A DNA stretch of 64,000 nt. Origin: Escherichia coli. Its GTDB lineage: Bacteria > Pseudomonadota > Gammaproteobacteria > Enterobacterales > Enterobacteriaceae. A program made the translations under genes and the position numbers. Positions 19,966 to 23,499 of this stretch are shown piece by piece (within the stretch, counting starts at the first letter, position 1; the number at the start of each line of letters is the position of its first letter). Where the stretch lies: the NCBI RefSeq assembly GCF_003018115.1, contig NZ_CP027457.1. One strand, written 5' to 3'. Under the pieces are notes generated by a model. It saw only the letters and a list, made by a program, of their open reading frames with translations. It was not told the DNA's origin and made no database searches.

Positions 19966-20064
19966 TTCTTCAGCTGGAGAAGGGACAGTTTGCTATACAT
20001 GTTGGTGAAAGAGGATTTATATACGTTCATCGGGTCGCTGCCGTACCAAGCCTTGTCCGAATCC

Positions 20065-20198
20065 GGACGTAAAAAAACCGACTTCGCGTCGGTTTTTTTA
20101 CTCTTCAGCCCAGAGTTGGTGGCTCTGGCTGGAGTGAGATAGCCATCATCTAACGCATCAATGCTAATACCATACTGAAACTATTGCAAGGACGTGCT
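20065..20198 (-). repeat. agrA: Tandem repeat copy 2; candidate agrA-type small RNA locus
   Basis: Near-identical to copy 1 over ~95 bp with a few substitutions, similar over ~135 bp; same hairpin ccgacttcgcgtcgg flanked by A7/T7. Confidence 0.45.
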
Positions 20199-20216
20199 GG
20201 TTCTATAACCTGCATG

Positions 20217-20236
20217 TACTGTATGATTATCCAGTT
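20217..20236 (+). promoter_or_regulatory. LexA (SOS) box tactgtatgattatccagtt, presumed dinQ promoter operator
   Basis: CTGT-N8-CCAG close to LexA consensus CTGT-N8-ACAG; dinQ is a known LexA-regulated gene of the arsR-gor region. Confidence 0.5.
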
Positions 20237-20311
20237 AGCTCTGAGGCATTTTCACTCTGGCAATGCGCTTGACATCCTCCACGCCCTAAAGGACGTGGAT
20301 TCCTGCTACGT

Positions 20312-21520
20312 TCAGGCTGTCGCCTGAATCATTTCGGTGGGTTCCTGCTTCAACGGGCGGCCTGACTGCACCATCCCTCCACAGGCAAGAACGGCGTGCC
20401 CCGCCGCTAAAATGTTACGAGCGCCGTTTACATCGGCGTTCGCTGTATATCCACATACCGGGCATCTGAATTGACTTTGTGACAGGCGATTTTCTTTCGC
20501 TGTATGACCACAGCACGCGCAACGCTGGCTTGTGTACGCTGGCGGAACAGCAAGCACCTGACCGCCACGCCAGAGCTGCTTGTACTCAAGCTGGCGGCGC
20601 ATTTCATACCAGCCCTGATCCAGTATCGAACGGTTTAAACCTGATTTTGCCCGGACATTGCGCCCCGGCAGGCTGACCGTACCCGATGCTGACTTTGACA
20701 TGTTGCTGACCTTCAAATCCTCAATGACTATCATTGCGTGGTTTTTGCTGACGGTCGTTGTGACTTTGTGAAGGTAGTCCCTGCGGATATTTGCGATACA
20801 GGAATGCAGTCGCTGTATTTTGCGTTTCTGCTTCTGCCAGTTGTTGCTGAATTTGACCTTGCGGCTTAACTGTCGCTGAAGTCTCGCCAGCTTCTTCTGG
20901 TTTTTCTGAAAACTGTTTACAGGCTCAAAGGCTGTGCCATCTGACAGCGTGGCGAGTTTAGCCACGCCAGCATCCAGCCCGACCATTGATGCTGAAGGGT
21001 GAACCGGAGTTGATACTTCACTTTCTGTCTGAATACTGATGTACCACTTACCGCAGGACTGGCTGACCGTGACATTTTTCACAACACCCGTGACCTGACG
21101 GCTATTCCGGTAGCGCATCCAGCCCAGTTTCGGCAGAAAAATACGGCTGTTTTCCTGATCGAGCTTAACGCCCTGCGGGTAGCGGAATGCATCATTCTGT
21201 CCCCGCTTTTTGAATCGGGGAAAAGCAGCCCGCTTCTGGAAGAAGTTTTTGTAAGCCCGCTCAAGGTCTTTCAGTGACTGTTGCAATGGCTGTGAGGGCG
21301 AATCTTTAAGCCATTGCGTTTCAGTGGCGTTTTTCCACTCAACCAGCCAGGAAGCCATTTTCCCGTAAGGGATGTATTTATTACCGGCCTCATGATTCTC
21401 ATTCTGACGTGCCAGAGCACGATTGAAAACGAAACGACATGCGCCTGCGAAGCGCCTCATTTCACGCTCCTGTTGACCACCGGGTCTTAACTGGAATTTA
21501 AATGCCTGTAGTCGTTTCAT
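20312..21520 (-). CDS. tnpB: IS605-family TnpB/OrfB, RuvC-like with C-terminal CxxC...CxxC zinc finger (402 aa from [10 protein letters not shown])
   Basis: [14 protein letters not shown]-terminus, C-terminal CACCGH...CPVCGY zinc finger typical of TnpB. Confidence 0.85.
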
Positions 21521-21542
21521 GGGCCAAATCATACTTTGGCCT

Positions 21543-21958
21543 ATGAAAAAAGAAACCGATATCCGACGCGGAAGGCATTGTGTTTTCCTGATGCATGTTC
21601 ACCTGGTCTTCGTTACTAAATACCGACGTCAGATTTTTGACTATGACGCGACAGAAAAACTACGCACTTACTTTTCAAATGTATGTGCTGATTTTGAAGC
21701 TGAACTGGTTGAAATGGATGGCGAACCAGATCACGTCCATTTGTTAATTAACTATCCTCCCAAACTGGCGATATCCAGTCTGGTAAACAGCCTCAAAGGC
21801 GTATCGGGTAGGTTACTGCGACGAGATCGACCAGATATTGCAGCCAGGTATTACTACAAAGCGTTTTGTGGAGTCCTGGCTATTTTGCCAGTAGCTGCGG
21901 TGGTGCACCAATATCCATCATCCGCCAATACATTGAACAACAGCAAACACCTGGTTAG
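21543..21958 (+). pseudogene. tnpA: IS200-type Y1 (HuH) transposase TnpA, apparently frameshifted before the catalytic-Tyr motif
   Basis: HVHLLI HuH motif in frame 0; conserved C-terminal SSCGGAPISIIRQYIEQQQTPG is encoded in the +2 frame after ...YYYK (shift near 21858-21863); the frame-0 ORF instead runs on to 22046. Confidence 0.6.
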
Positions 21959-22015
21959 GTGGAAAACCGCACCTTATATCCCCGCCCTGAATGAACGGGG
22001 TTTTACGGCGCACCG

Positions 22016-22093
22016 GATAAAGCAATCATCGTTCTTGGGGCGTTAATTGCGCTGCTGGAACTGATCCGCTTTCTGCTTCAGCTTCTGAACTGA
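22016..22093 (+). pseudogene. dinQ: DinQ-like type I toxin peptide ORF (DKAIIVLGALIALLELIRFLLQLLN), lacking an in-frame start codon
   Basis: Translation matches the remembered 27 aa DinQ peptide from residue 3; in-frame upstream codons back to the stop at 21992-21994 contain no ATG/GTG/TTG. Confidence 0.45.
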
Positions 22094-22109
22094 TAGCGGA
22101 AACGTAATT

Positions 22110-22140
22110 AAGGGCTAAGAGCACACTACTCTTAGCCCTT
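22110..22140. terminator. Perfect 12 bp stem hairpin (aagggctaagag/ctcttagccctt) between dinQ ORF and the gor stop; bidirectional terminator candidate
   Basis: Inverted repeat read from sequence, 7 bp downstream of the gor stop codon. Confidence 0.5.
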
Positions 22141-22146
22141 TAACAT

Positions 22147-23499
22147 TTAACGCATTGTCACAAACTCTTCTGCCGCCGTTGGGTGAATGGCGACGGTATT
22201 GTCGAAGTCTTTTTTGGTTGCGCCCATCTTCAGCGCCACCGCGAAGCCCTGCAACATTTCGTCCATACCAAAGCCAATGCCGTGAATACCGACAATCTTC
22301 TCTTCCGGTCCAACGCACACCAGCTTCATGCGGCACGGCTGGCGGTGAGTGGTGACGGCGGTATACATCGCGGTGAAAGAGGATTTATACACTTTCACCT
22401 GATCGTCGCCGTACTGCTCGCGCGCCTGCGGTTCCGTTAAACCAACAGTACCAATCGGCGGATGGCTGAAGACCACGGTCGGAATGTTGCTGTAATCCAG
22501 ATGCTCATCCGGCTTGTTATTAAATAGGCGTTCAGAGAGGCGGCGACCCGCTGCAACTGCCACCGGTGTCAGTTCTACTGCACCCGTGTTATCGCCCACC
22601 GCGTAAATACCTTCAATATTGGTGTTTTGATATTTATCGACGACGATATAGCCTTTTTCGTTAGTTTTAACGCCAGCGGCTTCCAGGTTGATGTTGTCAT
22701 TGGCAGGCTCGCGACCAATCGCCCAAATCAGGCAATCCACCGTTTCACTGCGACCATCTTCCAGCTCCAGCGTCAGGCTGCCATCGGCATTTTTCACTAC
22801 CGCTTTCGGGATGGCGTTGGTGTGCAACTGCGGACCTTCGGCGTTCATCACTTCGACCAGCGTTTCAGAGATCATCGGGTCGAAGCTGCGCAGCGGCGCA
22901 TGTTTACGCACAAACAGATGCGTTTTCGCGCCGAGGCCGTTAATCACGCCAGCCAGCTCAACGGCGATGTAACCCGCGCCAACAACCGCCACGCGCTCTG
23001 GCAAAGCAGGAAGGGCGAAGAAGCCATCAGAATCAATACCGTATTCCACGCCCGGAATATCCGGGTGGCTCGGACGACCGCCGGTGGCGATCAGAATATG
23101 ATCGGCCGTGATGGTTTCACCGTTAACTTCCAGCGTTTTGGCATCAACGAAGCGGGCAAAACCTTTGATTACATCAACGTTATTTTTACCGAGCACGTTT
23201 TCATAGGAAGTATGAATACGGTCGATATAGGCGGTACGGCTGGCGATCAACGTTTCCCAGTTGAATTTATTGATAGTGGTATCGAAACCATAATCCGGAC
23301 CGTACATGTGGATCGCTTCACGGATTTGCGCCGCGTGCCACATCACTTTCTTCGGTACGCAGCCGACGTTCACGCAGGTGCCGCCCAGCTCTTTGGCTTC
23401 AATCAGTGCGCATTTCTGGCCGTACATAGCCGCGCGGTTGATGGAGGCGATACCGCCGCTGCCGCCGCCGATGGCGATGTAATCATAGTGTTTAGTCAT
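22147..23499 (-). CDS. gor: Glutathione reductase (450 aa)
   Basis: [19 protein letters not shown] motif, redox-active CVNVGC, full Gor sequence. Confidence 0.95.

Follow-up and report, generated by a model that had tools for sequence, protein, structure and literature searches.

The window, a stretch of 64,000 nucleotides, is chromosomal DNA of E. coli and carries arsB-arsR, two sRNA genes (agrA and agrB), an insertion sequence, a remnant of dinQ, gor, rlmJ, and prlC. The insertion sequence is a complete IS609-type element of the IS200/IS605 family (20269..22016, minus strand, 1748 bp), and it lies in the arsR-gor interval, within the toxin gene dinQ. The element limits, 20269 and 22016, are the exact points at which homology starts and stops in comparison with copies at four other chromosomal sites: ydcL-ydcO (K-12 and F9792), yfeD-gltX (10671), ytfB-yjfZ (111, ESY002, and F9792), and yeaQ-yoaG (ETEC-2264). 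DNA identity is ~97% across all 1748 bp, the naming comparison being with copies that RefSeq names IS609; intact versions carry the RefSeq label "IS200/IS605-like element IS609 family transposase". A second IS609 copy was not found within the window.

The top strand of the element is the minus strand of the window, so that 20269 is its right end (RE) and 22016 its left end (LE). With a slash for each cleavage site, the top strand reads TTAT/CCGGTGCG...(LE)...tnpA (reverse)...tnpB...(RE)...GGATGTCAA/. Both cleavage sites are kept, after TTAT on the left and after TCAA on the right, and both ends have predicted subterminal imperfect hairpins, which in the IS200/IS605 family take the place of terminal inverted repeats. 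RE (20269..20311, minus strand) terminates on the top strand with ...GATGTCAA and holds the 3' end of the presumed omega-RNA scaffold. Its hairpin (20278-20299) is preserved, with a 9-bp stem and a predicted DNA folding energy of -9.7 kcal/mol. LE (21959..22016, minus strand) contains a hairpin at 21980-22000 whose outer stem is weakened by G-T mismatches and whose loop is larger; the predicted DNA fold has an energy of -9.3 kcal/mol, as against -18.1 kcal/mol in the copy at the ytfB site, which has an intact tnpA. The target TTAT precedes LE on the top strand (window 22017-22020, plus strand ATAA), and TTAT adjoins LE at all five insertion sites (dinQ, ydcL, gltX, ytfB, and yoaG). No target duplication is present at the RE side across the insertion sites compared. 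In the four bases immediately 5' of the RE hairpin, the element reads GAAT (20300-20303, minus strand), where all eight other copies read GGAT. By analogy with IS608, we take this position to be the tetranucleotide that guides right-end cleavage.

The accessory gene of the element is tnpB (20312..21520, minus strand), which is divergent from tnpA and encodes an InsQ/TnpB RNA-guided endonuclease of 402 aa, as judged from Pfam matches, alignment, and ORF length. The product matches three Pfam domains (HTH_OrfB_IS605, OrfB_IS605, and Cas12f1-like_TNB), its D, E, and D residues align with D191, E278, and D361 of ISDra2 TnpB, and a CxxC...CxxC zinc finger is present. The earlier reading that tnpB was left intact thus holds for the ORF length, the domains, the D-E-D residues, and the zinc-finger cysteines alike. 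A 382-aa tnpB reported in some assemblies is an alternative start-codon call on identical DNA. An Rfam scan of 19000-23000 returned the two Agr sRNAs and no curated omega-RNA family at threshold over the presumed guide RNA; sub-threshold hits over the 3' end of tnpB and RE were HgcC (20259-20379, minus strand, E = 0.013) and RAGATH-18.

The transposase gene, tnpA, spans 21543-21958 on the plus strand and is split between two reading frames. The first-pass annotation had described it as frameshifted just before the catalytic tyrosine motif, and translation bears this out. Frame 0 from 21543 (MKKETD...DHVHLLINYPP...DIAARYYYK) encodes the 5' part of the gene (21543..21860) up to ...RYYYK, including the HUH motif H-V-H at 21732-21740. 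Past YYYK, frame 0 continues as unrelated sequence (AFCGVLAILPV...FLGR, 21861..22046, plus strand), which crosses LE into the dinQ remnant and stops at 22044-22046; no Pfam match was found in this out-of-frame tail. The 3' part of the gene is encoded in the +2 frame (21864..21958, plus strand), where translation and alignment to IS608 TnpA give LWSPGYFASSCGGAPISIIRQYIEQQQTPG and then TAG. The conserved C-terminus that had been placed in this frame, VLWSPGYFASSCGGAPISIIRQYIEQQQTPG, is indeed found there by translation, with its TAG at 21956-21958. When the translated frames were compared with IS608 TnpA (PDB 2a6m), the Tyr of RQY (codon TAC, 21929-21931, plus strand) fell on Y127 and the following Q on Q131. 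Y127 is the catalytic tyrosine of IS608 TnpA. Both elements that define a Y1 HUH transposase, the HUH motif and the catalytic Tyr, are therefore encoded by the gene, in different frames, and the gene is a pseudogene.

The two frames are separated by one missing base, as the first-pass annotation had proposed. The window reads aaagcg at 21858..21863 (plus strand), whereas AAAGGCG is found in each of the eight other IS609 copies, in six by DNA alignment and in two by a continuous YYYKGVLW frame. The intact copies carry the extra G, and among the nine copies translated none shares the frameshifted sequence while keeping a continuous frame. Intact IS609 TnpA has 143 aa and ends QQTPG-TAG, the same as the +2 frame of the window. 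The effect on the protein can be read from the Pfam Y1_Tnp profile (PF01797): the frame-0 product matches only positions 1-93 of 121 (102 bits), so that positions 94-121 are lost, and putting the G back extends the match to positions 1-121 of 121 (144.6 bits, E = 2e-42). The RefSeq (PGAP) annotation of the F9792 gene is a "frameshifted" pseudogene. The observed lesion is an ordinary lineage-specific, presumably inactivating one-base deletion in a known IS, already annotated as a pseudogene, and the 167- or 175-aa "transposase" ORF called here by gene finders is a frameshift artefact. The start region of the gene has also changed. Where IS609 tnpA canonically starts, at the ATG of MILWSV..., the dinQ-site copy has ATC (region 21519-21545), and a two-base change from CACAGG to CATGGG makes a new in-frame ATG for tnpA at 21519 (plus strand). 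The same CACAGG to CATGGG change turns the tnpB start on the minus strand from GTG to ATG.

The frameshifted form is shared by a group of genomes. Five complete genomes (F9792, F8111-1SC3, F6326-C1, 2014EL-1345-2, and LR882990.1) share the 537-bp tnpA region at 100% identity, always at the dinQ site; F6326-C1 and 2014EL-1345-2 are typed O169:H41. Gene calls on 37 contigs (14 + 23) give exactly this frameshifted protein; at least a dozen NCBI drafts and four ENA metagenome assemblies are among their sources. From these contigs 18 loci were fetched, representing 14 different NCBI assemblies and the four ENA metagenome assemblies. A 46-mer spanning the deletion is present in all 18 loci, and the corresponding 46-mer with the G restored is absent from all of them. 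The ENA contigs are named k111_, k141_, and k127_, and from these names we read them as short-read assemblies. The missing G is a real inherited mutation because the same deletion recurs across so many assemblies.

Decay of tnpA is common among IS609 copies. In the nine copies compared, tnpA is intact in two, both at the ytfB-yjfZ site; two have lost only the stop codon (TAG to CAG), the ORF entering the flank; and five are dead, three by internal stops and two by frameshifts. In contrast, the 402-codon tnpB ORF is intact in 8 of the 9 copies. In seven of eight comparisons, tnpB codon differences amount to ~1.0-1.9 nonsynonymous per synonymous, and the tnpB of the yoaG-site copy, itself a pseudogene, has 4.7. 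These ratios suggest only weak constraint on tnpB by purifying selection. Replacement of the stop TAG (window 21956-21958) by CAG is seen in six of the nine tnpA copies (loci L002, L003, L005, L007, L009, and L010), with the ORF crossing LE into the flank; in two of the six it is the sole lesion, and RefSeq describes several as "missing C-terminus".

The history of the insertion itself can be followed through strain GF4-3. Its element lies at the same two dinQ junctions and shares a one-base insertion in the loop of the LE hairpin, whereas its tnpA keeps the G and carries a different one-base deletion further upstream, near codon 30. Divergence between GF4-3 and the window is 2-7% in the flanks and 2.7% in the element. 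The dinQ insertion is therefore old and was inherited vertically, and tnpA died independently in two lineages, because the two genomes share junctions, differ in lesion, and have diverged in their flanks. The dinQ-site copy is at least ~2.4% diverged from every other copy fetched. Taken as a whole, the locus very probably represents a decaying, vertically inherited IS609 copy with divergent tnpA and tnpB, inserted in the dinQ type I toxin gene, whose tnpA was killed by the loss of one base.

It is conceivable that the frame-0 product is itself functional, with an HUH domain devoid of the tyrosine region and a 61-aa unrelated tail acting as a dominant-negative partner of intact TnpA or as a hairpin-binding regulator, and kept because transposition is damped. 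IS608 TnpA works as a dimer in which each active site draws its HUH motif from one chain and its tyrosine from the partner chain, and given this architecture a Tyr-less subunit could poison heterodimers. The 504-nt frame-0 ORF is, moreover, identical in 17 of the 18 fetched loci, and the 18th encodes the same protein. Such conservation is, however, expected among closely related genomes, and the contigs had been looked up by exact protein sequence, a search that returns identical products only. The canonical ATG has been mutated to ATC, the tail has no domain match, and other copies decay differently, by stops at three different codons and by another frameshift, which points to neutral loss. 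A function for the fragment is accordingly very improbable, and we favor simple inactivation of tnpA.

The first-pass annotation had left open whether the missing G is an inactivating mutation or a sequencing error; the former stands. An error that hides an intact gene might have been entertained, since the site is a GG dinucleotide and since the F9792 assembly may contain indel errors: RefSeq flags several other core genes there as frameshifted (ybaK, yedA, yedJ, ynbD, and ynjI), together with two IS421 copies. These flags could be assembly indel errors or real pseudogenes of the lineage, and because of them F9792 alone would not be convincing. But errors arising at random would not strike the very same base in five complete genomes and in 18 of 18 loci from 14 NCBI and four ENA metagenome assemblies, and a sequencing or assembly error is rejected as extremely unlikely.

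Equally unlikely is low-level production of full-length TnpA by transcriptional slippage or a programmed -1 ribosomal frameshift, of the kind used by IS1 or IS3 transposases: the frames do overlap, and full-length protein would result if the ribosome slipped by -1 between codons K106 and W, but neither an X XXY YYZ slippery heptamer nor a homopolymer or A/T run was found around TAC AAA GCG TTT TGT in frame 0, and the two-frame arrangement is not conserved, all eight other copies, including the two intact 143-aa genes, having the extra G and one continuous frame at this point. To our knowledge, no IS200/IS605 Y1 transposase uses recoding. Inactivation of tnpA by a real one-base deletion is thus the reading retained below.

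The insertion has also destroyed dinQ, and we consider this to be of more interest than the tnpA lesion, which matters little alone. DinQ is a 27-aa protein with a GTG start (PMC3567139). When the window is set against the empty site of K-12 J53 (locus L004), a segment of 166 bp that K-12 has between two ATAAA (TTTAT) motifs (L004 1035-1200) is absent; at its RE junction the element sits as if inserted behind the first TTTAT, and at its LE junction as if at the second. At its 3' end, the lost segment takes in the GTG start of DinQ together with two and a third of its first codons. What remains of the gene (22022..22093, plus strand) is codons 5-27 and the stop; relative to K-12 J53 it has lost the GTG start, the sequence upstream of that start, and with them most of the 5' UTR. 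RefSeq annotates a 22-aa "dinQ" CDS at 22025-22093 (ATC start), which is a remnant without the true start codon. Of 5,426 complete genomes, 5,415 retain the 166-bp segment and 6 have the IS-dinQ junction. The segment may have been lost through two nearby insertions followed by recombination, or through slippage between the TTTAT repeats. By comparison with PMC3567139, it should include the region of AgrB antisense pairing and the Shine-Dalgarno sequence.

DinQ is under LexA control (PMC3567139). The dinQ promoter region persists as an orphan at 20217..20268 (plus strand), is identical to the K-12 sequence upstream of dinQ, and points into RE, antisense to tnpB. It includes a LexA-box-like sequence, TACTGTATGATTATCCAGTTA, at 20217-20237, in keeping with that control. 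Across 20217-20320, the dinQ promoter faces the RE of IS609 and is antisense to the 3' end of tnpB and to the presumed omega-RNA; DNA damage might thus drive antisense transcription across the guide RNA. The Agr antisense RNAs are kept, with Rfam AgrB hits of 79.5 and 90.7 bits at 19837-19918 and 20069-20153 (minus strand). As their target region should lie in the deletion, AgrA and AgrB would be orphan antitoxin sRNAs. The lineage is left without a functional DinQ toxin but retains both the AgrA and the AgrB antisense RNAs, a combination that could interest researchers of type I toxin-antitoxin systems and of the SOS response.

Although the dinQ-site tnpA is broken, the genomes that carry it are not devoid of an intact transposase gene. 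F9792 has three IS609 copies, at dinQ, ydcL-ydcO, and ytfB-yjfZ. At ydcL-ydcO, tnpA is interrupted by an internal stop, and the ytfB-yjfZ copy has an intact 143-aa tnpA (4555126-4555557) together with an intact tnpB; the other usual sites in F9792 (yeaQ-yoaG, yajI, gltX-yfeD, and yedK-fliE) are empty of IS609. All five genomes with the broken copy at dinQ share this ytfB-yjfZ region at 100% identity. The first-pass annotation had suggested that the element depends on a transposase in trans. A donor does exist in the same genomes, and for this reason trans-mobilization by the ytfB-yjfZ TnpA is possible. Recognition of the ends by a TnpA acting in trans may be impaired, given that the LE hairpin is weakened and that GAAT replaces GGAT. 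No daughter copy of the frameshift variant was found in the 5,426 complete E. coli genomes, in which matches above 97% are the five dinQ-site copies only and the next-best matches are ~96% identical; nothing here thus points to movement of the copy.

These observations can be assembled into the following course of events. Codon 107 of tnpA lost a single G in a lineage to which O169:H41 strains belong. What the gene can encode since then keeps the HUH metal-binding motif but not the C-terminal region with the catalytic tyrosine (Y130 once the frame is repaired, the counterpart of Y127 in IS608) and a glutamine close to it. IS200/IS605 elements transpose by way of a circular single-stranded intermediate, a reaction catalysed by TnpA. 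Such a truncated TnpA would be unable to cleave and rejoin single-stranded DNA, and the dinQ-site copy would consequently be non-autonomous, with its hairpins, cleavage sites, and tnpB retained. In principle, intact IS609 TnpA from the ytfB-yjfZ site could excise the dinQ-site copy, and the predicted donor joint after excision is ...GATTGCTTTAT/GCGCATTGCC.... TnpB is described as cutting the vacated donor joint (PMC10055086). At dinQ, TnpB and its guide RNA would then cut the vacated site (TTTAT followed by GCGCATTGCCAGAGTGAAAA), which would favor retention of the element.

The same guide might act on other alleles. The 20 nt that flank RE, GCGCATTGCCAGAGTGAAAA (window 20245-20268, top strand, 3' of RE), directly follow TTTAT in the wild-type dinQ 5' UTR (L004 1015-1039). 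This is the form of target that would be expected for the TnpB of the element, and the guide would match intact dinQ alleles. Because TnpA is dead, TnpB and RE are intact, and the guide sequence matches the wild-type dinQ 5' UTR, the element could be kept as a domesticated RNA-guided nuclease locus whose TnpB cuts incoming intact dinQ and locks in the toxin knock-out. Selection on TnpB independent of transposition would fit the contrast between the tnpB ORF, which is intact in 8 of 9 copies, and tnpA, which only 2 of the 9 have kept whole. We regard domestication as a speculative proposal with little chance of being correct. A literature search on IS609 and TnpB returned nothing relevant to the dinQ-site element.

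The K-12 IS609 at ydcL-ydcO (insQ/tnpB) shares the ~97% identity, the ends, the divergent layout, the TTAT target, and the 402-aa TnpB, and it too has a dead tnpA, by an internal stop. Unlike other IS609 copies, the dinQ-site copy occupies a rare site (6 of 5,426 genomes) and has its own missing G and ATG-to-ATC start change. To IS608 of H. pylori, which like ISDra2 is a structurally characterized member of the family, the repaired TnpA aligns end to end (2a6m, E = 1.5e-19), with the HUH motif, Y127, and Q131, and the hairpins and the RE terminal TCAA also resemble those of IS608. The repaired TnpA likewise aligns with TnpA of ISDra2 (D. radiodurans; 2xm3), and TnpB with ISDra2 TnpB (8bf8, E = 9e-57), with D191, E278, and D361 conserved. 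The elements differ in target, which is TTAT in the dinQ-site IS609, TTAC in IS608, and TTGAT in ISDra2, and in the dinQ-site copy the tyrosine is out of frame. A further difference is that tnpA and tnpB of IS608 point the same way and are divergent here.

In terms of function, the closest equivalents are the tnpB-only elements (IS1341-type and similar), which have ends, tnpB, and a guide RNA without a working transposase and presumably use TnpA in trans (PMC10055086). About 25% of tnpB genes have a tnpA nearby, and the rest are thought to be mobilized in trans (PMC10055086). In contrast to tnpB-only elements, the dinQ-site copy keeps a nearly full-length tnpA and is at an early stage of the decay from which they arise. 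It can serve as a textbook case of an autonomous IS200/IS605 element on its way to the tnpB-only form, one base from intact.

Two further observations were made in the course of the comparisons. AVS0247 has, near yedK-fliE (L016 4064-4588), an IS609 tnpA that is cut short after ...YFVSSC and runs on into unrelated sequence; the 174-aa product, an intact transposase according to RefSeq, is without the catalytic tyrosine. The other concerns the surroundings of the dinQ-site element. A 3.7-kb portion of the window is identical to a draft contig of assembly GCA_902845645.1. From the complete genome of F9792 (NZ_CP024273.1), the window differs by one base inside the IS and by 28 substitutions clustered at arsR and its immediate surroundings (19293-19663), the adjacent IS and gor being nearly identical; this cluster looks like a recombination tract.
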